Positions 7,538 through 48,631 are shown, counted from the whole stretch's first letter. The stretch: DNA of 62,495 nt, filler included, from Rhabdomonas costata (GCA_019059605.1; 18 parts of 18 records of this genome joined end to end with filler, not necessarily neighbours in it); one strand, 5' to 3'. Translations and numbers: made by a program. The notes: generated by a model not told the origin, from the sequence alone.

Positions 7538-8971
7538 CTAAAAAAAAATCCCCATGTACACTGGTTCCCTATTCTTGGGGTACTGAGAATGTAGCAGCGG
7601 CAAGAGCGAGATGCAACTCCAGGTCTTCGAGATCTCAGGGTGATCGGGGCCCAGGTGCATCTTTTGAATCCTCAGGCACTCCATTTCCAGAGCCTCGCAC
7701 TTGGAATAGTCAACCTTTTCTAACGAAAGGTGAGCTTGGACAAGCTGGCGCAGTGTGGCTGCTACCTGAGTGTGGTCGTTGCCAAAGGTCTGCCTTTGAA
7801 TCTTCAGGGCTTCCTCGAACAGCGGCTCCGCGGTGGTGAAGTTGCCTTGTTTCGAGAACTCGGTCGCAAGATCGCGAAGGCATTGGGCAACCGTTGGGTG
7901 AGCGATTCCGAAGTGCCTCCGCAGGATCCCCAACCCCTCCCCAACCAGCGGCTCGGCTTCGGGATACTTTCCTTGGACGCCGTGGTGAACTGCGTAGTCC
8001 AGAAGGGTCAAAGCAAGGTCTGGATGATTGCTGCCGAGCTTCTCTCTAAGAATCCGTATAGAACCTCTGAAGTGCGGCTCCGCGGCGGCATGATTGCCTC
8101 GATTGCTCAAAGCAAGGCCAAGTCTCTGCAGAGTCACCCCAACGGCTGGGTGGTCGCCACCGAACTGCTGCCTCTGCATCTTCAAAGTGTTCTCAAGTTG
8201 CAGCTCCAGAGGCAAACCACCTCCGGGTCCCACAGGTTCCACAGGCCCCATGGGTCCCGTGGGTCCCATTGCAGCTTGCATGGGTCTTATAGGTCCTATT
8301 GGCATTGGCCCCATAGGTCCCGTGGGTCCCATTGCAGCTTGCATGGGTGTTATAGGTCCCATTGGCCCCATAGGTCCCGTGGGTCCCATTGCAGCTTGCA
8401 TGGGTGTTGTAGGTCCCATTGGCCCCATAGGTCCTGTGGGTCCCATTGCAGCTTGCATGGGTGTTATAGGTCCCATTGGCCCCATAGGTCCCGTGGGTCC
8501 CATCGACGGTACAGGTGAGCTTGTGAGGTGGGAAGAAGGTGTGAATTGGGACTGCGGGGCCAAACTGAAGGTGCTGGGGGGTTGAGCAGGCATAGAGCCA
8601 GGGGTAAATATAGCCCCAGAAATGGGCTGGGATTGGCTTGAGAAGGGGAATACCGCTGACGAGGGAGGCTGGGTTGGCGCAGGGTGCGGAGTGAAACCCG
8701 AGGTTGTGGAAGCGATATTAGCAGAGGAGAGGAAACCAGAGAAGGGCAACCCAGAGGTAGACAAGCCCGCGGACCCTGTCGCCGATGCACTGGGAAAGAC
8801 AGAGGGTGTTGTGGAGGGGAAAGAGGAGATGACGGCAGTGGCTGCGACATCCTGGGGGGGAAATGTGGGAGGGAATTGTGGCACTGGGTTTATTGAAAAA
8901 GGCGCGGGGTTAGACCCTGAGAAGGAGGGCAGCGCTACGGCAGGACTTGTGGTGAAAGCAGGGGATGTCAT
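7538..8971 (-). CDS. TPR-repeat protein (kinesin light chain/nephrocystin-3-type TPRs) with a Ser/Pro-rich N-terminus and collagen-like GPX repeats
   Basis: Uninterrupted ORF with repeated 'G.DHP.VA..L..L' and 'G.Y.EAEPL..E.L.I' units. Likely start MTSPAF at 8971; the ORF is open back to 9064. Confidence 0.85.
   Translation of the reverse strand: MTSPAFTTSPAVALPSFSGSNPAPFSINPVPQFPPTFPPQDVAATAVISSFPSTTPSVFPSASATGSAGLSTSGLPFSGFLSSANIASTTSGFTPHPAPTQPPSSAVFPFSSQSQPISGAIFTPGSMPAQPPSTFSLAPQSQFTPSSHLTSSPVPSMGPTGPMGPMGPITPMQAAMGPTGPMGPMGPTTPMQAAMGPTGPMGPMGPITPMQAAMGPTGPMGPMPIGPIRPMQAAMGPTGPMGPVEPVGPGGGLPLELQLENTLKMQRQQFGGDHPAVGVTLQRLGLALSNRGNHAAAEPHFRGSIRILREKLGSNHPDLALTLLDYAVHHGVQGKYPEAEPLVGEGLGILRRHFGIAHPTVAQCLRDLATEFSKQGNFTTAEPLFEEALKIQRQTFGNDHTQVAATLRQLVQAHLSLEKVDYSKCEALEMECLRIQKMHLGPDHPEISKTWSCISLLPLLHSQYPKNREPVYMGIFF
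8250..8503 (-). repeat. Coding minisatellite, 57-nt unit (MGPTGPMGPMGPITPMQAA), about 4.5 copies
   Basis: 57-nt period visible (TGGGTGTT at 8344, 8401, 8458); one unit is 60 nt. Confidence 0.95.
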
Positions 8972-9296
8972 CGTTGTTGACGTGATTGGTGCATAAGAGT
9001 TGGAAACGAACATTTTGCAATGTGCCCCCCCCCAAAAAAAAACAAGAGAAAACCGCTGATGCAATCCAACCCAAGCATTCTGGTTTCACACACACACACA
9101 GTTCAGCATATCTCTCCCCTCTTGAAGGGGTCAATGTCCCAATAAAATCTTCGCAGATCCCCGCGAACTATCCCAATGTTGATTTTTTGTTGCGCCTTTT
9201 CTTCGTCGAAATCACTTACAAAAGCACGTTGTTCACACGAAGAGGCTTCTTGTGGAAGAAGGCACTGGGACATCAAAATGACACACACAAACCAAA

Positions 9297-13103: not shown

Positions 13104-15567
13104 ATTACGCGGGATCCTGGAAGGAAAACCGAATCCACCCTTTCTCCAACCCTTCCCAGCAAACGTAGCTCTGTCTCTTCTCAGCATCCAGAAGCTTTTA
13201 TTCCGTTTTACGCGCATGGCAAAGGAGTATATTGTCAGCTTGTCACCACGGTTCTGTCCACTCCCTCCTACTCTCCCGCACACCCGCACACGAATAGAAG
13301 CTTTCCGCCCCAATCACTCCTTTTGTCATCCGTTTTGTGATCCCCTTTCCAACCTCCCAATCACAATCTTTGCCTGTCTTCGTCCTCTACAACCTGATGA
13401 TCCCTATTTCCCAGTGGCTGTTGCTGCGACTGGGACAATCCGATAACGTTGTTCAGTTTCTTCATCGCTGCTTCAGGATGGATTGAAAGGAGGATTCTTC
13501 GCATGAAACCTCAGCGCTGCACGAACTACTTTTCGAAATGCTGAAAACGCAATGTGAGATTGCAGTGCTCCCGAAAAAAAATCCCGAAAATCCGACATTG
13601 GATGGAACCAAAAAAAGCCATGTGACGGGAATCAGTCAACCTTTCTGGTACATGAACACAATGCAGGTAGCCGCTGGAAAAGAGCAGCTGCGCGACAATG
13701 GCCCGGGACCCGTGGGGCAGAAGGGAGGTTACCAGATGTGGAACGTTCGGTGGTGAGCCGTTTTCGGTTCCCCACGGCACCGTTCNNNNNNNNNNNNNNN
13801 NNNNNNNNNNNNNNNNNNNNNNNNNNNNNTTAATTAATTAANNNNNNNNNNNNNNNNNNNNNNNNNNNNNNNNNNNNNNNNNNNNGTTGTGGGGGGGATA
13901 ACCCCCTCTTCCCCAAGGTCAGGGTTTTGGTTTGAAAATTTTCGAACATTTACTTGATGCCCCTGCTGTATCGACGGTCATTGAAGAGGCAGTTCATGCT
14001 GAAGAGGTCAGGAATACCAGGTACGAAGAAGGTTATGCGAAGGGATACACAGATGGTGTCTTTGGTGTGGAAGCGCGTCTGTGCGAAGCTATTGCCGAGA
14101 AACTAGGTGAGCTACAGATTAGAGAGGGAGTCGAATGATGTGGTGTTGCGTGGGAAGTTGCATCCAAAATTGCTGAGCATTGACCCCTTGGGGAAGAGGG
14201 GGTTATCCCCCCTACATAATGAATAAATGACCCTCCCAGGAACTTTTTCAGAATCGAGCTTTGTCGTGCATTCGAGGCACTCGTTGGATTTATACTTTTC
14301 ATTTTGTGGGGAATTTTATTTTTTCTATGTAAGTGTATGAGATGTAGGATAACATTACATGGAAAAGCGGCGCTACAAAGGAGTGTTTTCTCGCTGGCAA
14401 CACCAATGCGATTCCATACATTTTGCTGTACATATCTCAATGTTCTGGGTTGCAGTTGGGAACCCGTCGATTGCTACGGAAACGACGAGCCACGACCAGG
14501 CATGGATGAAGCTCAACGATGACTACCACAAAGCAGGTTGCGCTGCATGACAACTATTCTGCTCTTTTCAGTATTTGAATTGTAGATCGTGGGAGAAGCA
14601 ACACATGCTACCTGTTTCCCACCTTCGGTAACTTACGCTTTCCCCAAGGTGACGATCTCGCCGCGTGGCTGATCAAACGGCGCATTCTGACTGAGTACAT
14701 CACGATGCTTCTGGTGCAGCGGGCTCAGGGTCAAGTCCCTTTGGTATATCGTGACGTCGACCATTAACATCCTTTTTGCTTTTGGTACGAGATACGACAT
14801 TTTTCTCACCGTCCTTATTGATTTTTTTACTGTCCTTCTGCTTTCGTTCCCTTCTCTTCTCTCCATCCCTTCGTCCTTCCAGTCAGAAACCTTCAGAAGG
14901 ACTCGTCTAAGTCTGCGCCAAAAACTCTCCTGTGCGTGCTTTTCACCTTTGCCCCATCCTGCTCCGCTGCTCCAATGCGCTTCTTTGATGTTTCGATCTC
15001 GCTGAGGTTTGCCCCATACAGTCGACAATTGTTGCCCATCTGTGCTCTGACGCAACTGTGGAATGATTCACCGACAATCCTTGTGAACGTAGCTGGCAGT
15101 CAGCCCTTTTCCACCTCTACAGCTCAAAAGCTCGGAGCCTCGCAGAGATGATGGCGGTGATAAGGATGGCTCTGATGCCTTTTCCGCGGTGAAGCTGAAG
15201 CGCATTCGGGATTTGTTGGAGGGTGCTCTTGCTGCGGATAAGTCCACGGCCCATCGTGGCGCCCTGCAGGATGTCCGCCTGGAGCAATCCTTGAACCAGC
15301 TGAAGCAGGCATGTGGAATCAAGTTATTCACTCCTTGACCACTCGAACCAATTCAAAAGATTCATGCTTTGCTGTGACATGGAAAATTGCTCAAGGAGGA
15401 CTGGTGTCTGTTACGTTACGTGAGCAAGAAGACAGAAGGACACCTGGGTGAAAATACAAACCGTTAAGCGCAGCAGCTTGCCGTACCTGTGGCCTTATAT
15501 GTTCTCGTTCACTTCATGGAAATCGCTGTGCAGGGCCCTTCGGCTCTTTTGGGTGTGTCATTGTCAG

Positions 15568-16846: not shown

Positions 16847-16886
<40 letters not shown>

Positions 16887-25392: not shown

Positions 25393-27912
25393 AGGTGTTT
25401 GTGTGGTTGGTTTGTTTTTTTGTATGGGCCTGTTGGGAAAGTGTGTCTCCTCAGCGGTGCACGTGTGTTGACATTTTAGAAAAGGCTGTGTAAGTATCCA
25501 CGAGATATGCGCAGAGATTCAGGAAGCTGCTGCGCAGAAGGTAACGTATCCCCATTTCACAACTTAACACAAACACTTGTGGGTGTAATTATTTTTGGTT
25601 GCAATATTCACTGGCATAGTTACCCACCTCTCCGTTGCTCGATATTCAGTGCATTTCACCAACGCCCCGACCTGTTCGCATACGAAGTTCTGGTCGTGCC
25701 CGAATGTTTGCATAGTGAACTTAATACAAGAACCTTTTTTTGAATCTTCAATTTTCGCAGCTGTGACTGGGCCCAGTCTCCAAGAGTGCATCTGATATTA
25801 CTCTTTCGTTGGTCAAACTTTTCTGGATCACGAGAAAAGAGTACCTCGATCTCTACTATGTTTTTGCAGCGGCCACCGACCAATGCATTCCAGGCCTTTC
25901 GCGAGGCAGCACTGCTGGAGCCTTCGTGGAAGTTGATTTCATGCACCAAGTTAGAATCCATGCTTGGTATGATGCCTGCTTTGCATAAGCTTATCGTGCC
26001 GGGGAGTTGCTAGGGATGCATTACTGATCGGTGGCCCTGGGTGGTTAGTGGCGGATTCCTTCTTTTAGGTCTTTCGGATTAGATATCCACTCTTCACTCC
26101 CCGGATCCCCCGATTTGCATGGACGCGGTGCAAGGTCCCGCAAACATACACACGAACACAACTAAACTGTTCCTTTCGTGCCGCTGATCATACAAGCTCT
26201 TGAGTTTTTTCCAGTAGGAGACACACCGCAGACAACGCACAACGCACAAAACACCATCTTCACGCCCGCATCCTTCAGAGTGTTAGGCGCTTATCGCATC
26301 CAGGTTCATCCCTCACCGAAACGCGCTGACAATACGCCAATATGTGTGAGTTCCTTCTTTGACTCCTTTTGGAAGCTGGGCTGAATGCTCTAGGTCTTCC
26401 GGCAACGGCAACGGCATCTGCTCCTGTCCCAATTGCCTCACATGAGGGAGGTCCATGCATTAGTTTATATTTGAGCCGAAGTTGTGATCAACAATGCAAC
26501 CCCCCCCTCCTATTTCCTAGCTGTATGGTTACCGCACATCTTCCTACATTCACCCGTTCACTCACCCACTCACCCATTCGCTCACTCGATGGCACTTTCA
26601 GTGACTTCGTGGAATTCCCTTCCGGAAGCCGACAAGATCCTGTGGATAAATTTTGGGGAAGAACAGGTACTTCCGTGTTTGAATACAGAGAGGTTTCTGG
26701 GACACCACTTTTCTTCGTCTTAACGCTTTTTTACGGTGAACGTGAATCTCCTTGGGGATTGTTTCGATTCGTGTACCATGGGGTTCTGCAGGGGTCTAGC
26801 CGTTTCGGGCAAGCTCCTTTGGCGGTTGTACGCAGAATGTTTCTTCACAGTTGGCCACGAAGTTAGTTAAACTACTCAGAATTTGCAGTGCACCCCCACT
26901 CACCCACGCACCTCCCACACACCTGCACACCTTACTGTGCATATGCCTTTCCTCGGATCGCATTCGGTTCGTTCACAGTGGGAAAGCAGTCGAAGGGTTC
27001 ACACCCGTGGTAATACCTTGGTCTGGAATGGCAGTGAGTGGTGGTAACAAAAGCTCTTCTCAGCGCGCCTTTCAACTGTCTCAAATGGAGTTGCTGTCCA
27101 GCTCGCTGCCACCATTGCTGGCATGCCCTTTGCAGGCTGCGAAGCGGCAAGCTGAGAAGCCACAGACTGTGAAGCGGCAGGGCGCTTCTTCCTCGAAGAA
27201 CGCCATCTATGGTAGGTCCCTTCACAGGGCTTTTGCTCAGGGAGAAGATTCAGGGAGAGTGGATGGTGGTGGTGGTGGTGGTGGTTGCAAAGGATCAGGT
27301 ATATGTGAGTCTCCGGGCTAGCAAACCATTTACATGGCGTTAGGTGGTGATGCACGCGCCCGGATATTTCCAGGATGTTTTGTACCACTGCGCTCCACGC
27401 CCACAACTCTGGAACCCGTCTGATGCGGCCAATCAGACTCATCGTCACATATTTGGAAAACGTAAGATTTCGACGGCAGCCCCCCCCCTCCCGATGGACT
27501 CGACGGGCCCAGGCACACAGGCAAGTGATCATAAAATAGGCAGAAGTGTCGCTCCAACGGCTTCTTGTATTTCCGTGTGTATCACTTCCTTCGCAGACCC
27601 GGTGCAGTTTCCATCGGATTACCGTGACAGAGACAATACCATCGCAGCGCAACCGCGGAGCAGCTCCTCGGTCGGTCCCCGAGGCCCGTCTAAGACAACC
27701 GCTGTGGGCGCCGGAGAGTCGCTTCAGGACTCACATCAGGGCTCTTGGGCGACGAGCGCGGCCAGGGAGAGCCCCACAACCCACCCAAACAANNNNNNNN
27801 NNNNNNNNNNNNNNNNNNNNNNNNNNNNNNNNNNNNTTAATTAATTAANNNNNNNNNNNNNNNNNNNNNNNNNNNNNNNNNNNNNNNNNNNNTTGCAAAG
27901 GTGCTCCTTTTT

Positions 27913-28329
27913 TTAATTAGTTGAAGGTTGAATATTAGTAGTATCTGGTGCTTTAATCGAAGGATTTGATTGACCACTACCAAATAAAGTGGAGCCAGCA
28001 GTACCCATGATTGTTGGTAAAAATAGAAGCGATGCTCCAACTGCCAAGAGGATCATTGGTTTGCTTAAAGGTACTTGCTGAGGGTTATCTTTATGAGCTT
28101 TAAATTGGAGCATTCCCGCTAAAGCAAAAGCTACACCAACTACATAAGCAATTACCACTATAAGTGTGTATAGGGTTAAAATTTGTCCTTGAACATTGCT
28201 TACCATTTTACCTAGAGATGGTGAGGGATTACCGCTAGCATATACAGGAGTAACTACCAAAATTGTTAAGCATAACCCTATTAAGTATTTACTTACTCTT
28301 GATAACATAGGTAATAATTTAGTATTCAT
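27913..28329 (-). CDS. icmD: Dot/Icm type IVB secretion protein IcmD (DotP)
   Basis: IcmD-type motif AYVVGVAFALAGMLQFKAHKDNPQQVPLSKPMILLAVGASLLFLPTIMGTAGSTLFG. Intronless, AT-rich, with AAGGAG upstream and the expected position after icmC. Confidence 0.9.
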   Translation of the reverse strand: MNTKLLPMLSRVSKYLIGLCLTILVVTPVYASGNPSPSLGKMVSNVQGQILTLYTLIVVIAYVVGVAFALAGMLQFKAHKDNPQQVPLSKPMILLAVGASLLFLPTIMGTAGSTLFGSGQSNPSIKAPDTTNIQPSTN

Positions 28330-28338
28330 ATGAAAACA

Positions 28339-28344
28339 CTCCTT
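28339..28344 (-). promoter_or_regulatory. Shine-Dalgarno site of icmD
   Basis: Minus strand reads AAGGAGtgttttcatATG. Confidence 0.75.
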
Positions 28345-28395
28345 GCTTTATTTTAATAATATTATTATATAACTTATATTAAATTTATTCTAGTT

Positions 28396-29034
28396 TTAAG
28401 GATGGAACATTATAGTAGATAATGCTTGTATAGTAGGAACAAAGTTAACAGCTAGAACCCCACCTATAATATGTACCAAACCTTTACCAAATGTGCCTGG
28501 TTGTGCTCCCGATTGACCAACATGGGCCAATATAAACCAACCTCTAGCAAAAGCGATAAAACCTATCAATTGAATAAACATAACAACAGTATCTATTAAC
28601 CCAGCCCAATCTTGACCTGTCCCAAAGCTAACGTAGCTCATTAATTCATTACTGGCATTGGCATCATAATTAGCGCTGACATTTATATTGATAGTGTTGC
28701 CATAATCGTCTTGAATAGTAACAGCAGAGTTATTAAATAATAGGTTTATACCACTACCAAATATTGAAACAGAAAAAACATTAGCAGTTGTCGGGATATA
28801 CAATAGGACAGCACCAATAATAATCGATACAAAGGGACCAACCACTTCTTGTTTTTGTTGATGCACTTGACCAAAATTACGCAGCGCGGTGATCCCTCTA
28901 ATGATAAAAAACACCCCACTTACAAACGATACTATTAGCACTAAATTAGTTAATGGTAATATTAAAGCCTTTAGGTTAGTTAAAATTTGTTGTATGTCTA
29001 AATTACCGAGGGTGCCCCCTGTACGTAGGCTCAT
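28396..29034 (-). CDS. icmC: Dot/Icm type IVB secretion protein IcmC (DotE)
   Basis: Four hydrophobic segments with IcmC-type motifs (GPFVSIIIGAVLLYIP; IQLIGFIAFARGWFILAHVGQSGAQPGTFGKGLVHIIGGVLAVN). ATG overlaps the icmG stop (ATGA). Confidence 0.88.
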   Translation of the reverse strand: MSLRTGGTLGNLDIQQILTNLKALILPLTNLVLIVSFVSGVFFIIRGITALRNFGQVHQQKQEVVGPFVSIIIGAVLLYIPTTANVFSVSIFGSGINLLFNNSAVTIQDDYGNTININVSANYDANASNELMSYVSFGTGQDWAGLIDTVVMFIQLIGFIAFARGWFILAHVGQSGAQPGTFGKGLVHIIGGVLAVNFVPTIQALSTIMFHP

Positions 29035-29718
29035 CTAAGCACTACTCCCGAACTGGTTCTAACAAGATTATTAGCGGCATCTATTAAAGCAATTTTACCA
29101 TAATCACCTAACGAATCACCTTCAGCTACAGTAATAATTTGTCCCGCGGAAGATTTTAACCACACACGACCTGGAATTACAGCGTGAACTACGTACTCTG
29201 GTGTATTACTAAATAAATCTTGTTCTGATGGTCTTACATTAGCTGCTAAATCTAAGTCTTCTTCTTGAATGTATTTTTTTACTTTTTTAACGTCTAGAGA
29301 TAGTCCATCTACCGTATTAGCGAGATTTAATATTTTGGTATCGATGTTATTGGTACTATTGTTAACATTATTAATTGAGTTTGATTTTTCTTGTAACGTA
29401 TTTTGTAGTTCCCTAATTTTATTGGCATTAAGAGCTAAATCATTAGTAATGTTTTCTATAGAAGTTTTTAGTTCAACAATAGTTTCTTGGGTACGATAAT
29501 TATGATTAGCTTGTAATTGATTAGCTTGTAATGCATTTTGATGTTCGAAGCCGCTAACTTTGGTTGGTTGTTCTATAGGTATGTTAATTTCGAAGTTATT
29601 AGAATTAGTAGTAGCGCTTTGATCGGTTGGTGTCGATGTAGCTGGTTCATGGATTGATTCCGTAGTTGGTGTTGCCAGTTGTTGAGCGGTTGGTTCCGTA
29701 GTTGGTGCTGCGAGTTGT
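29031..29718 (-). CDS. icmG: Dot/Icm protein IcmG (DotF), 5'-truncated; absent from the ORF track
   Basis: Hand translation is open from 29750 to 29031: Pro/Thr-rich linker, coiled coil, then the DotF-type C-terminus YVVHAVIPGRVWLKSSAGQIITVAEGDSLGDYGKIALIDAANNLVRTSSGVVLR*. Confidence 0.88.
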
Positions 29719-31257
29719 CCTCGGGAATCTCTTTGGGGTCCGCAGCACCTTCACGTTCGGAGTCCTTCAGGGGCTCCGCTGAGGCAGGCGCTTCCAAGAT
29801 GAGCTTGCACAACTGCGCGGACACCAGTAAACATAAGTGTATCAAATGCAGAGCAGCTAGGCGACGAAAAAAGAACGAGGCTTTCCGTCTAGATCAGAAG
29901 TCATAAAAACCAAAAATGCGAGACTCATCGATAAAGTGCTCAATTGGCTGTCTGAACCTAAAAAAAAAGCAACAAGACTTTTTTTTTTGGTCTAATGCAC
30001 TTTAGATGCCTGGCGTTGCTAAGGCAGGTGTGTCTTCTTCCTTCGAATGAATGAGCGGCACCGAAGGGTGCAAGCAGGTTAAGAACAACCTTCTCTCCAA
30101 TGGCGGGAGGGATCTCTTGGCCATCACGGCACATCGAAAGAACTTGGAAGCACTCGCCGGCATTTGCCTCCGTGCACACAACATTGCGGGTGGATTCCCA
30201 CTCCACGCGGAAGCAGTCCCCCAGCGTCTGCAGGACCCTCTTTGAGCACTTCCACGGCGCCTGGGCATCAACAAAATGGGAGAAGGGAGCAGCATCTAAT
30301 GCCTGCATCGCCAAAGCAAGGCAAAAAGCACTTGGAAGGTGTGGAAGTTGTGAGAGAAATGTGGCGAGCGAATATACGCACCCTGAGCTTTTCCGACGGC
30401 ATGCTAGTCATCCGGCAAAACCCCAGAAGGCGGTTAGTCCCCACTGCGCAGAACACCAGGGTAACGTTGCCCTCCGCGAAGGCCCGCACGAGGTGCACCT
30501 GGCTCCTCTTGTGGGTGGCCCAGAGCCCGACGTCAGTGGAGATGCTGATGTTCGAGTACGGAGCTCTGATGACAAAGAACTTCCGCGGCATTCCATTGGG
30601 CTGCGCACCACCCTCGCCAGCCACCTTCCCCGGGGTGTCCTTTGCGTGAGCCTCGCCAGCGCCTTTCCCCGGTGCATTTCCGATTCCATGGTGCTGCGAG
30701 TGGGGGTTGGGGTAGTGGTGAGGAGCGTATATCTGAGGCCGGCGGGGGAAGTTGTCTGAGGCCGACGGGCGGCCTCCAGGTGGAGGCCCGATGTCGTCGC
30801 TGACGGTGCCGTGGCCGTTCTCCCACAACAGCTGGCACAGAGCGTTGCCCAGGTCTGGGGGAACTTCCTGGACTTCAGCGCACAGGGTGACCAGCTTACC
30901 TTCACTCCAAGGGTTGGTGTAGCCGCTCGGGATGACGTCACAGGTGCAGTACCAGCTCACGTCGAAGGCATCACTCAGAAGGGTGAGTGGAGTGCCCCTC
31001 CACTCCGGGCGCGGCCGGCTCCGGGGTAGAGAGTCCATTCGGAAGAATCCTCGGAAGTGGGTGGAGTATAGAGGGGAGAAGAGCAAAATGACGCGGCCGT
31101 CGTGGTAAGCCTCCAGGAGCTTCGGAAGTTGATTCCGATTCACGGCGTAGCTGTTGGTTCGGATCGATAGCTTCATGTTTCTCTCATCCGATTTGGTCAC
31201 AAAGAAACGAGTGGGCCGAACCGGCGGAGGAAACATGAAGCTATCGATCCCACCCAA
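29719..31257 (-). CDS. Eukaryotic protein with two tandem YTH domains (partial; exons 31257-30382, 30260-30090, 29812-29719)
   Basis: YTH1: RFFVTKS..NMKLS...VILLFS...HFRGFFRMDS...FDVSW...NPW...EVQEVPPDLGNALCQL. YTH2: KFFVIRA..NISIS...GLWAT...VTLVFC...LLGFCRMTS...FRVEW...RDGQEIPPAIGEK|LCKL. Both GT-AG introns are phase 0. Confidence 0.88.
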
Positions 31258-31616
31258 CCNNNNNNNNNNNNNNNNNNNNNNNNNNNNNNNNNNNNNNNNN
31301 NNNTTAATTAATTAANNNNNNNNNNNNNNNNNNNNNNNNNNNNNNNNNNNNNNNNNNNNGTGTGGGTTGAGGCGTCCGCTCTTCAGGAAGTTCGGTTAGA
31401 TTGGAAAGAAACCCGTTTGTGTGGATGAGGGCAATGTTACTGGCAGGGATCAACTAAAGAGTTCCTGTCAGACATGTCCTGTTTTGCTATCATTTTTGTC
31501 ACTCTCAAGGTTACTCTCCAGGTTCTAATTGCTAAGGGTGATAGGTTTAACTTCTCTTCCCCCGGAGTGTCGGAGTGTGGGGTTTCCTGCTCTGTGCCCG
31601 TGCCCGTGCCCGTCAG

Positions 31617-34320: not shown

Positions 34321-34681
34321 CCCTCGGCTGCTTCCCGGTGTGCACAATCCGATGGACGTTTGAACTAAAATATTTGGCCCGCCCTCAATCCTTCGATACT
34401 TTCTCATGGTTATACACTTCACTGTTTCTACGTTTCATCTCTTTCCCCCATTTTCCGGACAAGCGGTCTTCCTTCTTGCTTGCTTGCTTGCTTTCCTCTA
34501 ATCTAATTATTTAATTTCTTTATGCTTGTACCTTTCAGTGTGTATGACACAAATCAGTCTTTGCTTCTTTGCTTTGGTTGGAGATGGGTCCTTCTTTGGC
34601 ATCCACATATCGCCCCGAAAAGCCTTCGATGAAGGCTGTGTCGATTGCCTTCGGTGAAACCCAAATTGCGGGCATTTCCGG

Positions 34682-34723
<42 letters not shown>

Positions 34724-34870
34724 ACTGAGCAATTGGACAGAAATGGGAAATTCAAAAAAACCNNNNNNNNNNNNNNNNNNNNNNNNNNNNNNNNNNNNNN
34801 NNNNNNTTAATTAATTAANNNNNNNNNNNNNNNNNNNNNNNNNNNNNNNNNNNNNNNNNNNNGTTTGTGG

Positions 34871-35128
34871 GGCTGCTTTGGAGCTGCTGGAGAGAGGTCG
34901 TTTGTGCTCGAAAACAAGAGATGGAAAGCAGAGCTTAATCCGGAATTTTTGTTGGCATAAGCTCGAGGGAAAATTTTCCGAAAGAAGTTGATAGCTTAGG
35001 GCTGAGAGCAAGCGAGTACCCAAGCTTCTCCGATGAGCTTATGCCAACAAAAATTCCGGATTAAGCTCTGCTTTCCATCTCTTGTTTTCGAGCACAAACG
35101 ACCTCTCTCCAGCAGCTCCAAAGCAGCC
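34871..35128. repeat. Perfect 94-bp inverted repeat (34871-34964 / 35035-35128) at contig start
   Basis: Arms are exact reverse complements with a 70-nt spacer. Confidence 0.95.
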
Positions 35129-36364
35129 GTAAAAACCCAATAGTACTGATCCCAAGGAGTAAAAAAGTCTTTTCCTACTTTTCATACTGTCCCGTTTACA
35201 GAAGTTAACAGGGTCGAGTGCATCGTATACATGGGACTAGCTTATTGCAAGCTTCAATACACGTTTAGTTCCTAGCGCAGCAAGGGAGATGCAGCAATGC
35301 ATAGGTTTTCTACTACATGGCCGGGTTCCTTACCGGTAAGACTGAAAGGGAGCTGCGCCCCCTTCCCACCATAATTAGTAAAAGTAGCAGACAAAATGTG
35401 TGATAGCCAGCCGGGCTCTCGATGCTGTGTGTGGGGAAGTGATACCAGTAAAGCCTATGTGGTCCCGCAGTGTGCTGGCCGCGTCAGTCCGGGGTGGATT
35501 TGAATGAACAAGGTTCCATCTAGTTTTGGTTTATTTGTGCGTTTGCTTTGTGTTCATCATCACATCATCATCATCATCATCATCATCTTTTCTCTTATCT
35601 TCTGAAATGCACAGTTGCCGTGGGAATGAGGTCAACCCACATCAACGCGCGGCCCATTTTTGTTGCGAGAATCCAAGAAGGCACAAGACTTTGCAGACCA
35701 AAGCCAAACAGATGAATCACGTGACCAAACTGAGCACCAGCAGGCGCGCGCATACAAAAGGTTCACACTGCACAGGGTTGACCCTCTGCCCTAAATGTGA
35801 TTAGCATCACATCAAATAACGTACGAGAGCAGGACACGATGCGATTAAAATCACACCAGCAAAAAGGGCAAAAAACGGCGGATGTTTGGATAGTTGAACG
35901 GTTCCGACCCACCGAACTGGCAAACGCTGGCAAACGACAACGCAGCCCGGGGCCTGTTCGAGTCATCCCTTCATTCGTGGACGAAATGACAATATGCAAG
36001 AGACAAAGCAATTAGGCATTTCCCGCAGCCCAGTGTTCCGATTCGGCCCGCACCGGTGGGCTCGAGCGAAATTAGGGTGGCACCCTAGACCAAGTCCCGA
36101 GGCCCACCGCGGAGGCCATGCAACAGAGTTGAGCGAAGCAGGTGGTAGTTCCAAGGGGACAGCGGCTTCTGGTTGCTGAAAAGGGCAGATAAAATGCAGC
36201 AAGAAACCATGTGCCTTCTTTACGTGCAAAGCGATCCATTGCGCAGATAGAAGGAAGGCTAAAAGAACGGTTTATACCATTTGTGATTCTTAACCGCTTT
36301 GAAAAAGCTCAACAAGCATAACTGCTGAGCAGTTGAAGGATGAAGGCGGGCCTGCTGGAAAGAG

Positions 36365-36895
36365 NNNNNNNNNNNNNNNNNNNNNNNNNNNNNNNNNNNN
36401 NNNNNNNNNNNNNNNNNNNNNNNNNNNNNNNNNNNNNNNNNNNNNNNNNNNNNNNNNNNNNNNNNNNNNNNNNNNNNNNNNNNNNNNNNNNNNNNNNNNN
36501 NNNNNNNNNNNNNNNNNNNNNNNNNNNNNNNNNNNNNNNNNNNNNNNNNNNNNNNNNNNNNNNNNNNNNNNNNNNNNNNNNNNNNNNNNNNNNNNNNNNN
36601 NNNNNNNNNNNNNNNNNNNNNNNNNNNNNNNNNNNNNNNNNNNNNNNNNNNNNNNNNNNNNNNNNNNNNNNNNNNNNNNNNNNNNNNNNNNNNNNNNNNN
36701 NNNNNNNNNNNNNNNNNNNNNNNNNNNNNNNNNNNNNNNNNNNNNNNNNNNNNNNNNNNNNNNNNNNNNNNNNNNNNNNNNNNNNNNNNNNNNNNNNNNN
36801 NNNNNNNNNNNNNNNNNNNNNNNNNNNNNNNNNNNNNNNNNNNNNNNNNNNNNNNNNNNNNNNNNNNNNNNNNNNNNNNNNNNNNNNNNNNNNNN
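36365..36895. other. Scaffold gap of 531 N
   Basis: N run without the linker cassette. Confidence 0.99.
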
Positions 36896-38951
36896 AGAGC
36901 CGCCAAGGGGCACGGGTGGGTTCCGGCCTGAGGGTGCAAGCGCCGGCCACGCAGCGTTTTAGCAAAAACTTCGGAACTGCCTCGGATTTGCCCCCATAAA
37001 CATCTGCCATACTAAGTAAAAATCGCGAAAATCCAAATCGCTCTCCAAGTAGGCCCGGCGCTCCCCCCCCTAAATCAGTGCCCTGGGGGAAAGCATGAGG
37101 GTGATGCCACCTTGCCTTGCCCAGCAGGAGGTCCAGCTCGTACTGTGTGCTCATGGCGCTGCGCTGGTGCTGTGTCAGGATCAGGGTTGCCAGGGCGTGA
37201 GAGGAGGCTAGGGAGGGGGCAGCGCTACTCAGCTTCCCGCGAGACTCCCCGAGCCCTCCCCACAGCGGCAGAGACGACCGTGGAAGCTCCCTTCCCCCCT
37301 CCCTGAAATGCCCTGTGACGACAAAATTCTCCAGGGAGTCCGAGCTCACCGAGGCTGGGCCTGCATGCGTGCGCGAGTACGTCATGAGAGCCCCTCAGCA
37401 TCACAGTACGCCCTCTTGGCCCACAGCGCGCGCGCGAGTGAGGAATGCTCTGACAGGCGATACAAGACGGCGGGTGAAACCGCTTTCGTTGCGCCGCTGT
37501 GGCAGTCTTGGTCTGACGGAAACCACTCCGTGCACGTACGTGTGATTGTAAGACCCGTAGATTGTACGTGTTCATGGTACGACACGTACGCACCAAACAC
37601 GCACCGACAGAGAAGGAAACGGAGAGAGGGGATCGTAGGAGGTGGCGCCATAACCTAAGTCGCTAATATGCGCAAAAAATCGTTTGTTCCGTGTTGTGCA
37701 GTACGAGCGGGAGGATTGCTCGCGTTATTATCCTTAATGCCTTCCATTTACCGATTTGCCGAAAAGTGTGTGTGTGTGTGGACGTGTGTGCGCGCGCGCG
37801 TCATGTACAAGAGTCCGGAATGGCTCTAACATTCAACGCTCACTGTCGGCATTCCAAATAACGCAGAGCGTAAACTCAGAAATGATGCCTTTCAACATCA
37901 GTCATACCAAGGAGAATGGAAAAGCCCTTCACACACATGTGGAAGCCCATCAACATTTTGGAGCGTCCCGGAGCTTTAATCGAAAGCACATAATTTTCAA
38001 ACTCTGAGTTTCGGGATGTACGTTACCTTGCCAAAAAAATCACATTGAACTGAACACTGAAACACGTTCCCTTTCAAGAACGAAAATCAGGTTTGGGCGA
38101 GTGTGCCTTTTCGTCTTTCTGAGGTTTGAATCCTGAGTTTGCAGGGGTATACGACTTTTATCTACTTTTTTTTTTGGGATGTAACTTACCTTAGGTGCAC
38201 AAAAGAATCGCCTCTGTTACACACCCCCCCACCNNNNNNNNNNNNNNNNNNNNNNNNNNNNNNNNNNNNNNNNNNNNTTAATTAATTAANNNNNNNNNNN
38301 NNNNNNNNNNNNNNNNNNNNNNNNNNNNNNNNNTTTTTGGGGGAAATTTCTTCTCCTCGGGAGAAAACTTCATGGAGTGTCCCAGAAAACTAATGGAAAT
38401 CGGCTCCCGCACTCGTGCAATTCCTCCCTGATCCTCCATTTTCTATCCCATTATCCATCTTCTTGGGTCGCAGGAGGACAAAATGTACCACATCCGATAA
38501 AGGGATAAAGAGTTGTGACCACTTATGCAGAGGTAACCATTTGGGTGGTGATTACTCTCTTGCCTTCACTCAAGGCGCACGCGCACGCGAAAACAAGAGA
38601 AAGCAAAAGGGGAAGTCGTAAGTGAAACAACAAGTGCATCATGGACAGTTGGTTTTTGTCCCCTCTCCATGCACACATAACAGTACAGACACCCCTTTCC
38701 TGCCTGTCCTCCTCATGGTGTTCTAATAACGACCGAACTCAAGGCAGAAGCTCAAGAAACTCAAGGACCCTTCACAGCCTCACTGCCCCAATAAGCTGCA
38801 GCGCAGCTCATGGCGAAGGGACTGAGCAGGTAGTCAAGACAGGGATCAATGCGAGTTGGATTGGTACGCCAATGAAAGAAGCGATAGAATGGGAAGGACT
38901 TGGAGGAGAGAAGGGAGGGAGGGAGGTCGTGCAGCGGCCAAGCACATCAAC

Positions 38952-40570
38952 CTTGTACTGCCCCTGCGTGTGGGGTGCGAAGGAGTTCAGCAATGCCCCA
39001 GACTTCCGGTCTAGAAGCCGCACTGTACTATCCAGTGACTGCACCAGGAGGCAGTTGGAGTCCCATGACACCCGAACGTCCGTGATGGACCGCAGTACAC
39101 AGTCTGAGGTGAGCTGGCCCTTTCTCAAGTCAAACGTCCGCACGTACCCTGAGCGCAACGGAGGCAAACTAACAAATGAAATACCACCTGGTAAACCTGC
39201 ACAATGGATGAAGTTCTGCCTTGAGCCTCGAAAAAAGCCAGTCCGGGTCAACGCCAAGTGTGATGCCTCCAATCAACCATAGCTTTCGGTTGTCTGCTGC
39301 TTCCACTGAACTTTCCGTTTGCTGGCTCGTGACTGCTAATCTGTGAAGAGCTGAGGAGGTGCAAACGTTTCCCTAACAAATACTCCGGACCCCCAAAACG
39401 AAAAAATTCAATGTTGAAAGAATAAGCCAACCGATAAGCCAAGAGACAAGTGCCTCTACAATCCAGCCCAACACTCCCCCGCCCAACCACTGTCTAGGTT
39501 TCCTCGTAGCTCTACACAGCGCACCATCCACGCAGCCCGCCACAACCTCCGCGTCGTGCACCCTCACCGCCGTCACGCTATCCGTGAACCCACCCAGGCT
39601 CTGCAGCGGTACTAAGGCCCGGCTGCGAAGGTCCCACAGCTTCACGGTGGAGTCGTACGAGCCCGAGACGAGCACCCCGTCGCCTACCCCGCCGTAAGCC
39701 AGAGTGTTTACCCGCTCGCTGTGCCCGCGGAGCTTCCGCGAGGGCGTGTCTCGGGTCACATCCCTATCAAAAATGGCATAGCTCAGACATGCGCACCCAA
39801 GACGCAACACCAGCACGATATATGCTCATATAAATCACGACAGCAACAAATACATGAAAACGCTTCCTCGAGGATTTCGCAGCGCGGAGCCGCATACAAC
39901 CCTAACACGCTTACCAATCATGTTCTGACTGGTAGCACGTTGAGCATCTATTCCTCGCCGAGTGACAGTCATTAACTCAATGATACCCACCACTTAGACG
40001 GGCAGGACACTTGCCACGACACTTGGGGAAATAGCAGACGAGAGCAAAAAAAAAAGCTGAAAAAGCCACAAAGTACTGAAATAGCAGGCACCCATGTGCC
40101 CCGCACAAATTCCCTGCTCATAGGTATCGTGCAGCTCTTCTTCAAACCACGCATCCAACCAGAAAAACTTCCGTTATGTGCGTAATTCGTGTACGCGGGT
40201 TCCCGTTCAACGATCGAGCTGCCGACGTAGAGAACGTTGAGAAAACTTCAGCATTTTCCCTGTTAATTCGGAGGCAGCAGCAGGCCTACCAGACTAATAT
40301 GGCCTTGTCCAGGCCAGCCGACGCGAACCCCGCGTTGTCCGAGGTAATCGCCAGGTCCTGCACGGCGTAGGTGTGGGCACGGTAGGCCTTCACCAGCCGC
40401 CCGTTGTGGGGGTTCCACAGCTTCACCAGCCGGTCATCCCCACAGGACATACAGTACGCCCCGTCCCGACTAAACCGCAGCCCACACACCGCGCCCTCGT
40501 GGGCGGCGGCAAGAGTCCGAACGGGCACTGTAGGCACGGCCACAGCCCCCGCGGCGGGAACCTCGCTCAT
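38952..40570 (-). CDS. WDR83: WD40 protein, WDR83/MORG1-like (exons 40570-40290, 39763-39525, 39148-38952; 3' end missing)
   Basis: HEGAVCGLRFSRDGAYCMSCGDDRLVKLWNPHNG; GHSERVN; VSGSYDSTVKLWDLRSR...PLQSL..FTDSVT; GCVDGYVRTFDLRKG; SLDSTVRLLDRKSGALL. Intron phases are consistent. Confidence 0.88.
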
Positions 40571-41800
40571 TGGGGGCCACACAAAACAAAAGCACGAAAA
40601 AAAACTATCGCGGTCCCACAAGCCCTGAGGAAATAAAGAATAGAAAAGGAATGCAGCTTTAATACGCAGGTGGACAGACCCACTGCGCACTTTCCTAACT
40701 TTTGCCACAAAAACCAGAGTACCAGCTTGAGTAGCAGGATCCGCAACGTGTCAGTGGGGTAAGCAGCATACAGAAAAGAAAAAACCAAGCCTATTGCAAA
40801 CAAACGTTTGGGCTTGCGACTCTCCCCGTCACACGCCCAACCACCCAATCCAGGCTGACAGCGGAAGAAGGGGGATCTCACTTATCGCTTGATCGTCCGG
40901 AACACAACAGTCCATTCCAGTCAAAACGCGAGCGTTTGTGAAACCCTAAAATCAAAATGAAAAAACAACCCAGCCACTTTCCTCCGTTCCTTCACCACTG
41001 AAATCGTCACGATTTGCCTCATTATTAAGGTCCATTTTGGACTATAGCTCATGCCTGAACTGCAACAAGGCACACAAATTCACATCATGAGACAACGCTT
41101 GGACAGTGGCAGTTCGCTCCGAGATTCTCCAACTTTTTTGCGATGCCACACCTTTTTCTGCAGTTCGAATCTAAAGGCTCACATGCCAAAGTTGGAGAAA
41201 CTTCTTCGTGCCGAAAAAGACACAGCCATATCAAAACAGTCGTAACAACCTCAGGGAACCCAAGGTCTGGAGAAAAGTTTCACATCATTGCAAAGTTAGT
41301 CTGCGGGTGAGCACGGGCATTTACGTTTTGCGGTCAAGGGACAACACTGGCAATGCGGGACAAGAGAAGGACAATGGTGAAAGAGGAGGTACGATCAACA
41401 TCCGGTCAACACACATTGGAAGCACAGAACCTACTCAGAAGTCTCGTCTGACGTAAAAGAGGGGGGAGCGTCCCTTTCACCCTTGCTGTCAGCTACTACC
41501 AGTAGCGGCATGGGTGTGAGCCAGAAACTGGACAGGATATCGGGTATTAACAACTAAACGGAATGATGAGGCATGGAAATTTCATTACTTGCACCACTTT
41601 CGACGGAACCGAGACAGGGACGAAGCAACCCGTCTCCAGACTAAACAGGCGCAACATATGCACAGGGAAAGATCATGACCAATGATTAAAAACACCACCC
41701 NNNNNNNNNNNNNNNNNNNNNNNNNNNNNNNNNNNNNNNNNNNNTTAATTAATTAANNNNNNNNNNNNNNNNNNNNNNNNNNNNNNNNNNNNNNNNNNNN

Positions 41801-43200: not shown

Positions 43201-45484
43201 ATCACAAGTCCAATATATCTCGATCAACGAAAAAGAAGTTTTGCGCTGACCTGTTGGAAAAACCCCAGTTCTGGGGACGCACACCCACCCACACAGAGAT
43301 TTAGCTGAACACGCTCTTCTGAAGGCTTTGCACCACCTGCGTAGGTGGATAACTTTAGCCTGTCTCCATCGCCCTGCTGTACCTCGATTGAACTGCTACC
43401 ACGAGACCTCTGTCGCGACGCCTCTGGCTTTATCTCCTTGCTAGCTGGCTTTGACTCTCCCCCTTGGGGCTCTGCGCGCCTGCTCTAAGCGTGGATGTAT
43501 CCGGGCTTCTCTGGTGCTGTAGGATCTTCCTCCTCGCTGCGCTCAATTTGAATATGATACAAAACCCTCTGCTACCACATGTCAATGTGGTAATTCTCTT
43601 GAACACTGCGCTCCGGATCTTTGGATCTTGAACAACCTTCTGCTACCACCTGTAACACACCGTCTACCGAGCCTCTTACGTGCCTCCTACCTCTTGCGGG
43701 TGGTCGTGGCTCTTGGCTCCGCTTATGACAGCCTGTATCGCGACTTATCTTGCACTAAGTGGGCGCTGCCACGGTGTAAACACATGGCTTCCTCTCTTTG
43801 TGCTCTATAGTCTGTCGCCGCGGTGTGGGCTATATCTATGGTTCCTGGCTTGGGTGTGGCGTCGGGCTCTTTGACTTCGCGCTTGCTTGCTCTAGCTGGG
43901 GGCGAGGGTTCTTTAGCTGATGCGGAGACGGGGTTTTGGGGAAAACGGGTGGTTTACCTGGACTTTTCTTGCTGTGAATTTTGCTGGCTTCTCGTTTCAA
44001 AGGCCTTTTCTTTCGAGGGTTCCGCTGGGAGGTGTGGTCCTGGAGGTCTTGCCTCTTCTCAGCCGTCCGCTTACGCATTTCACACCCAAAAACAAGGCAA
44101 GCAATAAGGGAACGGCACCAAAGCACAGCACAGGGGAAAGTGAGAAGTTTCAGCTCTCAACCTTTAGCCATGACTCGCCTCCAGCTTGCTTTTAGCATGT
44201 CCCCGCTGAGCTTTTAGCTGTGACCTGTAATATAGGTGAACAGCTTTCTAATCACAACCAAAAACACCACGAAAACCAAAGTATACCCAAATCAAACTCA
44301 ACAAAAGAGCATCCGACGTCGGACGTCGGTTTTCAGACTTCTTTATCGGGATCTCTCTCCTAATCTCTTTAAATCGGCGTTGAAGAACACCGACTTGTTC
44401 CTCTTTTAATTCTCCAACCGCTCGTTGTGAAAATCCTCCATTCTGCAGGATCTTGATCTCGTCAATTCTCGCTGGGAAAACCCTCAACAAACGCGTGCAC
44501 ATGCGCATCCAAGATTGCTTTTATCCTGGTAAGCCTTTATCTCCTTTAGCTTTCTGTTCACCCATTGCCTTGCCTCAAGCCTTTCCCGTCTACTTTAGCA
44601 CCTCTCTTCTTATTTTTGGGGTGCGCTTTATCTCTTCTCCTCGCTGCTCGCTGTCATATGTTCTTGCTCTTGCTTCGTCTTCGTCCTCAGCTTTCTTCCC
44701 TTCCACTGCTCCCATATATATCCCGTGGCTTCTTCCACTGGCTTTATCAAAATGCACCACTTCTACATCAAGTCTTGGGCTTTTCCAAAGTCCCATCTCA
44801 CCAACAGTATTTTGTGCTCAGCAACAACCCATGAACTGAATCTTCATCGGGAGCTGGTCAACCATTTCCCCCAAATCTTTGTTATATCAACTACTCTTTT
44901 TTTCACTCTGTCGAAAACGGCGCTGAAAATCGGGACGACTTTATCCACCCGAAGACTCTCCTACGTGTCCTGGGCCGGAACTGGCTCCAGACTTCGTCCG
45001 GCGGCGGACGGGTAGAAGGGACGCATTCGAGTTTTAGGATTTCCGCCTTTCTAAGTATTGCGCGCCGTGAATCGAACTCCAACTCTCGGACTCCAACTTC
45101 CATAGTTGCAGTTACTGCGTTGAATTTTGTTTTGACATTCATTACGCTCATCATGAGATGTCGCGGNNNNNNNNNNNNNNNNNNNNNNNNNNNNNNNNNN
45201 NNNNNNNNNNTTAATTAATTAANNNNNNNNNNNNNNNNNNNNNNNNNNNNNNNNNNNNNNNNNNNNTGTTTGTGGTTGGTGTGGTTCTCGGGAGTTTTCG
45301 CCCACCGGAAATACCGTGCGGCAGCGTCGCGATGTCATTGAGGTGGGCTGCGTGGGGGGGGGGGCACGACAGGTCCTCCTATGCCTGCGGGTTGCTTCTT
45401 ATTCCTGATGGGCACATTTGCTTTTCTGATCCAACGGCAACGGGCCTGCCTGCATTGCTATTCCTTCGACTGTCTTGCTCCAGG

Positions 45485-45811
45485 AACACGGTGCTGCGGG
45501 TGAAGTGGAATCCTGGGGTGCCGTGGCAGCTGCTGTCCGGGGGCCGGGACTGTGCGGTGCGGCTGACAGACCTGCGGATGATGGCCGAGCCCTTTGCCGC
45601 GTTTGAAGGGCACAAGAAAGAGGTCACCGCGCTGGACTGGCACCCCGCGCATTCCGACCTCTTTGCCAGCGGGGACGGCGCGGGGGCGCTGGCATACTGG
45701 CTGGTAGGCCCGTACCACGGTCATGGAAACGCTCCCAGGGAGGACGTCGGTGGCGGGGGGACCGGCTCCGTGGCAGCCCGGCACGGTCGGGAGGTGGTCC
45801 CACCCTTATCC

Positions 45812-45844
<33 letters not shown>

Positions 45845-47035
45845 AAACGCCCTGTCTTTTTGTCTTTGCGTGCTCCGCGTGCGGCACACTCAAGGATTAA
45901 AAAGGTCAAGTGTTCAGTTGTCAAATTCGGAACCCGAATCTGCTTTTACTCGATGCAGGGGCTTGCAAGCAAGGGTATGGCGCCTCCTCTCCCGTTCCAA
46001 GTCGAGGTGGGAATTGTGCTGGCGCTTTCTTCTCACCTCGCACGGAGTTGGGGGGGGGGTTCTCTCAGGTGATCCATCCCATTGCGGAAGTTCCGAACGC
46101 TCACTGCAGCCACGCGACGAACTCGACGATCTGGGACATCAAGTGGCACCCTCTCGGGCACATGGTGTGAGCTTGTGCGCATGCATTTCGACCGCACAAG
46201 CTAGACGCCCTTGCTTCGTCCATTATGTTCACGCCACTGTTCCCTTCCTTTGTCAGCTTGTCACGGTGGGGAACGACATTTACTGCAAGATCTGGGGGCG
46301 CCGCAAGCCAGGTGTCTCTTTTTTTCTTCCCCTCCTCTCCGCTTTGCGAACTCGCTGCCCTCTCTTTCTTTTACTGTTGAGCGCAGGGGTGAGTTGATGC
46401 GTCCTTTCCGGTGTCCCCATGGTCTGTTTGCTTCCTGCTGCAACGCAGGACAACTTGAGGACGCCAAGGAAATCCGTCCGGATGGCTCTGTGCTGCAACC
46501 CGCGGCAGCGCAGAAACCAGAGGCCAGGCAAACCGGGGGCAGGTTTGCGCGCCTGTGTGTTTGCGTTTATTAAGTCTTTTTTCTGGCATTTCTGTTATGA
46601 GCGAGTCTGGATCGCTCCGTTTCGTCTTAGCAAGACCGCACCTAGCTGTGCGTTTTCGGTGTCTAGCTGTCTAGAATTTCTGCTTTGGAAAGCACGAGCG
46701 TGAGTTCGGAAATGTGTTTGCTAATTTGGTGTAGCTTGCTATCTGAAGAGAGCGGTGTGAGTGAAATTGCATTCCACGTGGCATTAACACCGCGTTTCCA
46801 GTGCAGTCCTATATATACTGATGCATGCACCCTCAAAGCACCGACATCTGCAAAGAAACATACACATTTCCTGGTACACGATCTATTGGTGCGTATCTTC
46901 CCACACTTGTGCAGGAGAAAGCCCGCCTTCCAAGGTCCCGCCCTGCTGCGGCCTGTGCTCAGCACGGAGTACCGCGACTTGGCGGCCTCGGAAAGCCAAA
47001 AGATGCTTGTCACGTTTGGCGACGAGGATGACTGA
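45485..47035 (+). CDS. WDR33: WDR33/Pfs2/FY-like polyadenylation factor WD40 protein, 3' exons
   Basis: NTVLRVKWN..WQLLSGGRD...DLR...FEGHKKEVTALDWHPAHSDLFASG; AH...IWDIKWHPLGHM|LVTVGNDIYCKIWGRRKPG. Last exon ends VTFGDEDD*. Confidence 0.88.
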
Positions 47036-48450: not shown

Positions 48451-48631
48451 TTGTACTCTGAAGTACCTAAGGAACGGATATCCGAGGATCATCGTGATTG
48501 GTGTTGTGATTACCTTGAGCGCTAGTCTGAGTTTGATGTCACCAATTGGAAACACGGGACGAACAAAGGTAATCACAACACCAATCACGATGATCCTCGG
48601 ATATCCGTTCCTTAGGTACTTCAGAGTACAA
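48451..48631. repeat. Perfect 66-bp inverted repeat (48451-48516 / 48566-48631) at contig end
   Basis: Exact reverse complements with a 49-nt spacer. The minus strand reads MILGYPFL, like the end of a retro-protease. Confidence 0.93.

Follow-up and report, generated by a model that had tools for sequence, protein, structure and literature searches.

The window analysed here, a stretch of 62,495 nucleotides (nt; filler included) from the assembly of Rhabdomonas costata (GCA_019059605.1), consists of 19 short pieces joined by N44-TTAATTAATTAA-N44 spacers, namely 17 pieces of 3.36-3.50 kb and the two halves of one gapped scaffold. One of these pieces, the contig at 27893-31259 (3,367 bases), carries a fragment of a Dot/Icm type IVB secretion system beside part of a eukaryotic gene. 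The sequence at 27893-29727 is genuine bacterial DNA and represents a core-operon fragment of this system, comprising the 3' two-thirds of icmG, complete icmC and icmD genes, and the first codons of icmJ. The features of the contig, in window coordinates, are as follows:

27893..27898, minus strand: start of icmJ/dotN, two codons (TTG CAA) before the contig breaks off; matches the TTG CAG of L001, the locus of the nearest relative
27913..28329, minus strand: icmD/dotP, complete, 138 amino acids (aa), small inner-membrane protein; DUF6750; 56% identity to L001
28396..29034, minus strand: icmC/dotE, complete, 212 aa, multi-pass inner-membrane protein; 62% identity to P0001 / L001
29031..29727, minus strand: icmG/dotF, 5'-truncated, of which only the periplasmic linker, the coiled coil and the C-terminal domain remain; NF038218, PDB 7muc
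29645..29716, no strand assigned: direct repeat of 36 nt, present twice (81% alike), whose translation within the IcmG linker is (Q)QLA(T/A)PTTE
29717..29739, no strand assigned: junction with a switch from 35% to 57% GC; 12-mer TCTCTTTGGGGT at 29728, 10/12 G/T
29740..30267, minus strand: non-coding eukaryotic DNA of high GC content, presumably flanking the YTH gene on its 3' side (from sequence and tetranucleotide profile)
30268..31257, minus strand: eukaryotic open reading frame (ORF), 329 aa, in which the YTH (YT521-B-like) domain is matched in two stretches; Pfam YTH E 6.2e-30; open at the contig edge

The GC content of 27893-29716 was 35.1%, compared with 56.8% for 29717-31259 and 49-55% for the other contigs of the window, and thus lay near the 29-34% of the Dot/Icm loci of related bacteria. 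Likewise, the tetranucleotide profile of the bacterial half correlated with that of L001 at 0.84 and with the host at -0.16, whereas that of 29717-31259 correlated with the rest of the window at 0.74 and with L001 at -0.42; as a control, 32 window pieces gave a median correlation of 0.74. Three co-oriented minus-strand frames were open in the AT-rich part, with no stop or frameshift across ~590 codons, bearing out the description in the initial annotation of an abruptly AT-rich, intronless block of three co-oriented genes. The expression signals noted there were also recovered. The icmG TGA stop (29033-29031) overlaps the icmC ATG as ATGA at 29034-29031, and a Shine-Dalgarno site AGGAG at 28343-28339 lies 9 nt ahead of the icmD ATG. 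Past icmD, the contig end reads TAA, AAAAAGGAGCACCT and then TTG CAA, with a second AGGAG at 27908-27904 followed 5 nt later by TTG CAA (27898-27893) at the contig edge; its proposed role as the start of the next gene is mirrored by the TTG CAG start of icmJ in L001. Owing to the 35.1% GC, the L001-like tetranucleotides, the intact Shine-Dalgarno sites and the stop/start overlap, the block is assigned to bacterial rather than eukaryotic DNA.

The icmG product matched the NCBIfam model IcmG_DotF (NF038218) with an E-value of 3.5e-22 and 79.3 bits over profile positions 88-260 of 266, and it aligned with the solved DotF of Legionella pneumophila (PDB 7muc chain AF, 269 aa; E 1.8e-12), residues 91-238 of the query corresponding to 117-262 of the chain. 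Compared with the 343-aa IcmG of L001, the identity was 71%, with residues 135-343 of the relative as the only aligned part. Residues 1-134 of that protein include an acidic cytoplasmic segment as well as a membrane helix (about residues 46-63), and both are lacking from the window copy, so that ~110-134 N-terminal residues, membrane helix included, are missing. Upstream of 29165 the frame offers none of the start codons ATG, GTG and TTG, and it continues into the GC-rich eukaryotic sequence as far as a stop at ~29751-29753. The gene is thus icmG deprived of its 5' end, and a whole IcmG, which would have a cytoplasmic part at its N-terminus and one membrane helix, is not encoded. The earlier statement that the genes contain no stops or frameshifts stands as far as the open frames are concerned, but icmG is not whole, as its start codon and N-terminus are missing.

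IcmD matched Pfam DUF6750 (E 2.6e-08, 34.3 bits vs a cut-off of 27) and was 56% identical over 138 aa to the syntenic gene of L001. For IcmC, the best match was 62% (P0001 / L001), one of 5 hits among ~5.8 billion clustered proteins, and the protein was 55% identical to P0003, which the Joint Genome Institute (JGI) named 'intracellular multiplication protein IcmC'. No Pfam family and no curated Dot/Icm model matched IcmC, and the search against solved structures likewise gave no match, the sodium channels at E 0.23 or worse representing chance. IcmC and IcmD are paralogues that cross-match at 25-33% identity, and a pair of paralogous small multi-pass membrane proteins is therefore found directly after icmG, where IcmC and IcmD are expected. 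The identities and order of icmG, icmC and icmD proposed earlier are thus supported by NF038218, the 7muc DotF, DUF6750 and the synteny with L001, the proteins did not fail to match as had been allowed for, and the gene calls icmG'-icmC-icmD-icmJ' are sound.

The nearest relative was a metagenome-assembled genome (G001, locus L001) titled 'uncultured Francisellaceae bacterium', with amino-acid identities of 71% for IcmG, 62% for IcmC and 56% for IcmD. Its locus runs icmL, an icmK-sized ORF, icmE, icmG, icmC, icmD and icmJ, the last of which encodes a 204-aa IcmJ/DotN (NF038221, 231 bits vs a cut-off of 100) and begins with TTG CAG 12 nt after icmD. The order icmG-icmC-icmD-icmJ was found in both the window and L001, and icmG-icmC-icmD was kept in 13 of 15 related loci (within 1.5-kb flanks, L011 had no separate IcmD hit and L013 no IcmG hit, and both were dropped). 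Besides this order and the TTG start of icmJ just after icmD, the two share a low GC content (32% in L001 vs 35%). They differ in sequence, with 67% identity over the concatenated proteins, a divergence of about genus level or deeper, in the icmC-icmD spacer (369 nt in L001 vs 66 nt in the window), and in the window icmG, whose first 110-134 codons are missing and which is joined to eukaryotic DNA. The resemblance to the Dot/Icm system of L. pneumophila is more distant: the DotF C-terminal domain and coiled-coil region align with 7muc (E 1.8e-12), and the icmG-C-D-J gene order is that of Legionella, but the NF038218 score is only 79 bits vs 200, IcmC matches no curated model, and the order and genome size class of the window's relatives differ.

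Since conjugative type IVB systems have the same gene order, the three genes were also considered as IncI-type transfer genes (traP-traQ-traR-like) of a conjugative plasmid rather than parts of an effector-translocating Dot/Icm system. The IncI1 TraP and TraQ profiles matched IcmG and IcmC weakly (E 0.0033 and 1.2e-05, respectively), in keeping with distant homology and the same small membrane-protein architecture in IncI1 (R64-type) traP/traQ. The IcmG_DotF profile was, however, far ahead of TraP (E 3.5e-22 vs 0.0033), the E-values for IncI1 being 15-20 orders of magnitude weaker than those for Dot/Icm. Among 72,556 plasmids searched, the best full-length match to IcmC was 27.6% identical, so that no plasmid copy exceeds this value, and the nearest relatives carry the same locus with IcmJ/DotN above cut-off, plus IcmS in 5/5. 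On these grounds a conjugative-plasmid origin was ruled out as highly improbable. Near-identity to a known reagent or cross-sample contaminant, which the initial annotation had named as a possible objection, was not observed either, as the best match was 62% among the ~5.8 billion clustered proteins and 27.6% among plasmids; judged by these comparisons, the bacterium of the window is apparently no known contaminant or plasmid.

The placement of the source bacterium is based on the three secretion proteins. In a maximum-likelihood tree of concatenated IcmG (C-terminal part), IcmC and IcmD with 14 rows, the window was sister to G001 (91/88) inside a 6-row clade (100/99), with terminal branches of 0.38 for the window, 0.15 for G001 and 0.20 for G039; the best identity over the concatenate was 67% across 501 columns. 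The GTDB order of G001 comprises 41 species, and IcmC was matched in 32 of them. Eight of the nine species without a match are genomes of 0.3-0.4 Mb (G002-G009), and all five of the 0.3-0.4 Mb genomes tested contained a full narG above the curated cut-off; the other genomes of the order measure 1.3-4.3 Mb. Because 0.3-Mb denitrifying genomes and 1.3-4.3 Mb relatives in one gammaproteobacterial order fit UBA6186, we infer that the order of G001 is UBA6186 / 'Candidatus Azoamicales'. According to PMC11549363, UBA6186 has been renamed 'Ca. Azoamicales', is sister to Berkiellales and contains Azoamicaceae, and according to PMC9418006 it is one of the GTDB orders jointly equal to Legionellales of NCBI. 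Francisellaceae proper, suggested by the title of the nearest genome, was set aside, as the 41-species order, with IcmC in 32 species and tiny genomes with narG, fits UBA6186. The source is therefore best placed, as far as these proteins can tell, as an undescribed bacterium of the UBA6186 / 'Ca. Azoamicales' order. This agrees with the earlier proposal of a low-GC, Dot/Icm-encoding and possibly undescribed lineage (35.1% GC; best protein match at most 71%), while its designation as Legionellales-like is correct in the broad sense of NCBI and does not extend to Legionellaceae, Coxiella or Fangia.

Within the same order by this assignment and PMC11549363, 'Ca. Azoamicus' and 'Ca. Azosocius' (Azoamicaceae) share a protist-associated lifestyle. 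They differ from the window's relatives in that Azoamicaceae are respiratory endosymbionts of Plagiopylea ciliates with denitrifying genomes of 0.3-0.4 Mb, vs 1.3-2.0 Mb with Dot/Icm in those relatives. The eight tiny genomes of the order gave no IcmC match with the window query, the family profiles not having been searched there, a pattern that would be consistent with Dot/Icm loss in the reduced respiratory endosymbionts. In the literature searched, no paper was found that discusses a secretion system in UBA6186 itself, although supplements may list one; PMC9418006, the one paper with both terms (UBA6186, secretion system), treats the system in a different order.

In Legionella, the Dot/Icm system comprises ~25 genes, DotF is a component of the core complex in the periplasm, and the small subunits DotE and DotP reside in the inner membrane; effector injection into eukaryotic host cells is established for Legionella and Coxiella. 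Judged by homology, by synteny and by the genes that the nearest relatives carry, DotF in the source bacterium would likewise sit in a periplasmic core complex, with DotE and DotP as inner-membrane subunits of an effector-injecting machine. The contig fragment itself, with 3 of ~25 genes, one of them truncated, is unable to form a working system. IcmS, a Dot/Icm effector adaptor, was found in 5/5 closest relatives and in 0/14 control genomes, and TLC nucleotide transporters, of the ATP/ADP type, were likewise found in 5/5 closest relatives, with 2-6 matches each. The presence of both in all five points to an intracellular lineage, and the sub-clade holding the window, whose members have genomes of 1.3-2.0 Mb, would by this profile fit obligate intracellular, effector-injecting bacteria of protists. 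In a symbiont catalogue, 21/21 UBA6186 genomes are predicted to be intracellular (bioRxiv 10.1101/2025.05.29.656868).

The occurrence of the bacterial block and the eukaryotic YTH gene on one 3.4-kb contig, a link missing from the initial annotation, requires an explanation of the junction. Bacterial homology ends at 29716, in agreement with the end at 29718 given earlier, at the end of the second copy of the 36-nt repeat, which is G/T-rich on the plus strand and forms the last clearly bacterial stretch; the sequence is host-like from ~29728. Across the window, 12/19 pieces start with a 12-mer of at least 10/12 G/T (e.g., 6936, 13886, 41801, 45267, 48738, and 59133) and 14/19 end with one of at least 10/12 A/C (e.g., 3359, 27792, 31259, 38233, and 41700), against an internal background of 4.5%. 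These tails suggest untrimmed degenerate-primer sequence of low-input whole-genome amplification, in which case the terminal 10-12 bases may be non-genomic, and they are presumably traces of the degenerate G/T ('K') primers of PicoPLEX/GenomePlex-type amplification. The host piece of the contig carries the G/T 12-mer TCTCTTTGGGGT at 29728 (10/12) and an A/C-rich end at 31259 (11/12), and for this reason looks like an amplicon-bounded unit. A G/T 12-mer within 12 nt was found at 14.5% of internal host positions vs 14/18 contig starts, giving a likelihood ratio of ~5 in favour of a chimera. In addition, fold-back inverted repeats were detected at three contig ends:

34863-34973 / 35026-35136: repeat I1, 111 nt, 94% complementary
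48451-48516 / 48566-48631: repeat I2, 66 nt, 100% complementary
13888-13918 / 14186-14216: repeat I14, 31 nt, 97% complementary

These repeats probably arose during amplification or assembly and are not likely to be genomic palindromes, and since three contig ends fold back in this way, artefacts of amplification are evidently present in the assembly. The bacterial side of the junction (29560-29716) is G/T-rich on the plus strand, and an A/C-rich 3' end could anneal to it and be extended. The proposed course of events is that the DNA of the bacterium was amplified together with that of the eukaryote in a low-input whole-genome amplification, and that the link to the YTH gene on the 3.4-kb contig is most likely a chimera made during amplification or assembly. 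With a probability of roughly 70%, we consider the fragment to derive from a co-amplified bacterium of the UBA6186 order, joined to the YTH gene as a chimera. For the junction taken separately, a chimera would have about three chances in four, integration about one in five, and any other cause about one in twenty.

The alternative of lateral transfer would place the dot/icm fragment in the nuclear genome of the eukaryote, ~540 bp downstream of the YTH gene, as a recent nuclear bacterial insert that is non-functional as a secretion system. Bacterial and host sequences do lie on one contig with no N gap between them, all genes of the contig share one strand, and intracellular bacteria are the usual donors of nuclear inserts. 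The break of icmG in mid-gene is as expected of an insertion breakpoint; it is, however, equally expected from a chimera, and one junction only is seen. The longer branch of the window (0.38 vs 0.15 for G001 and 0.20 for G039) is compatible with relaxed constraint, but signs of residence in a host genome, such as amelioration or decay of ORFs and signals, were not found: the 35% vs 57% GC and the bacterial tetranucleotide profile are retained, the ~590 codons contain no stop or frameshift, and the Shine-Dalgarno sites and stop/start overlap are preserved. Moreover, the host side of the junction bears the G/T signature of contig or amplicon starts, with its likelihood ratio of ~5 for a chimera, and the window contains further artefacts of amplification. 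An insertion of very recent date would nevertheless show the same lack of amelioration and decay. On balance, integration is regarded as unlikely. Its strongest form, in which a protist nucleus holds a recently integrated Dot/Icm piece of its own Azoamicales-type endosymbiont beside a YTH gene, is rated slightly lower still; if true, the junction would directly document DNA passing from symbiont to host in the lineage that gave rise to the 'respiratory endosymbionts', and it would link the sampled eukaryote, in the role of host, with a clade represented until now almost entirely by metagenome bins.

A further alternative is that the bacterium is unrelated to the sampled eukaryote, being prey, a bacterium of another protist, or contamination from reagents or the laboratory, in which case the fragment would be uninformative about this host. 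Where a bacterium was located is not revealed by 1.8 kb of its sequence, whatever DNA is co-sorted is also copied in low-input amplification, and the other 18 pieces of the window contain no further bacterial sequence, all having 49-55% GC and eukaryotic TPR and WD40 exons. However, the lack of near-identical sequences in large public protein sets (best 62%) or plasmids makes a common reagent contaminant unlikely, the IcmS and TLC transporters of the closest relatives imply some eukaryotic host, and both DNAs at least shared one reaction if the junction is an amplification chimera. An unrelated bacterium is therefore a minority possibility, rated a little above nuclear integration.

Several points weigh against a co-amplified UBA6186-order bacterium with a chimeric link to the YTH gene. 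The chimera is argued from end signatures only, with a modest likelihood ratio of ~5. The junction 12-mer contains two C's, the 11 nt at 29717-29727 are assigned to neither side, and at its left end (27893) the contig lacks the G/T enrichment, with 7/12. Scanning the window with Rfam returned 0 matches, and no rRNA or marker gene of the bacterium was found in the window. The curated NF038218 cut-off of 200 bits was not reached by the window IcmG (79.3 bits); because the full-length proteins of the five nearest relatives fall short of it too (72-98 bits), the cut-off excludes the whole lineage and not the fragment alone. The order name was reached indirectly, the title of the nearest relative itself saying 'Francisellaceae', and prey or a neighbouring cell, rather than the sampled eukaryote, may have housed the bacterium.

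A co-amplified symbiont or associate together with a chimeric contig remains the most economical reading, and the fragment is most likely the trace of a bacterium inside or attached to the sampled cell rather than a gene of the eukaryote. A Dot/Icm system is expected in this clade; the fragment flags an undescribed bacterium, with protein identities of at most 71% to anything in the public sets searched. Very few hosts are known for its clade of 'Ca. Azoamicus' relatives with Dot/Icm and nucleotide transporters, in the sources consulted Plagiopylea ciliates (PMC11549363, PMC13037464) and Loxodes (PMC12644861). Should the remaining assembly contain a bacterial bin, the clade would gain a genome and a candidate host. 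As bacterial sequence is joined to host sequence here, 'bacterial genes in eukaryote' need read-level support before a gene-transfer reading.

On the eukaryotic side of the contig, the nearest Atlas clusters of the YTH ORF were all eukaryotic YTH proteins, with Apicomplexa, Ascomycota and Streptophyta the commonest (scores 0.91-0.92, recognition below the usual level). The remaining pieces of the window contain few long ORFs, and Pfam matches were obtained for 4/82 host ORFs, all to TPR and WD40 repeats; these pieces look like intron-bearing nuclear DNA of a eukaryote. A 515-aa frame at 7541-9085 on the minus strand carries TPR_12, TPR_10 and nephrocystin-3-type TPR repeats, and is overlapped by a 57-nt tandem array at 8240-8503 with 4 copies, the last three of which are 98-99% alike. 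Two WD40 coding pieces at 39376-39825 and 40289-40750, both on the minus strand of one contig, lie ~460 nt apart with non-coding sequence between them, suggesting a eukaryotic gene with introns, and a further WD40 piece (45269-46069, plus strand) lies at the start of another contig.

Other observations concern the host genome and its assembly. Microsatellites of (CA)n or (GT)n, often following (GC)n, were detected at 16849-16884, 34677-34724, 45809-45848, 51510-51549, and 52207-52246, and are a feature of the host genome. A gap of 531 N at 36365-36895, within one scaffold and distinct from the 44-N spacers, explains the apparent dip to 25% GC at 36001-37000. Furthermore, 49350-51334 on one contig contains direct repeat pairs of 54-117 nt, 84-96% alike and 756-1276 nt apart, suggesting a tandem duplication of ~0.8-1.3 kb in host DNA.

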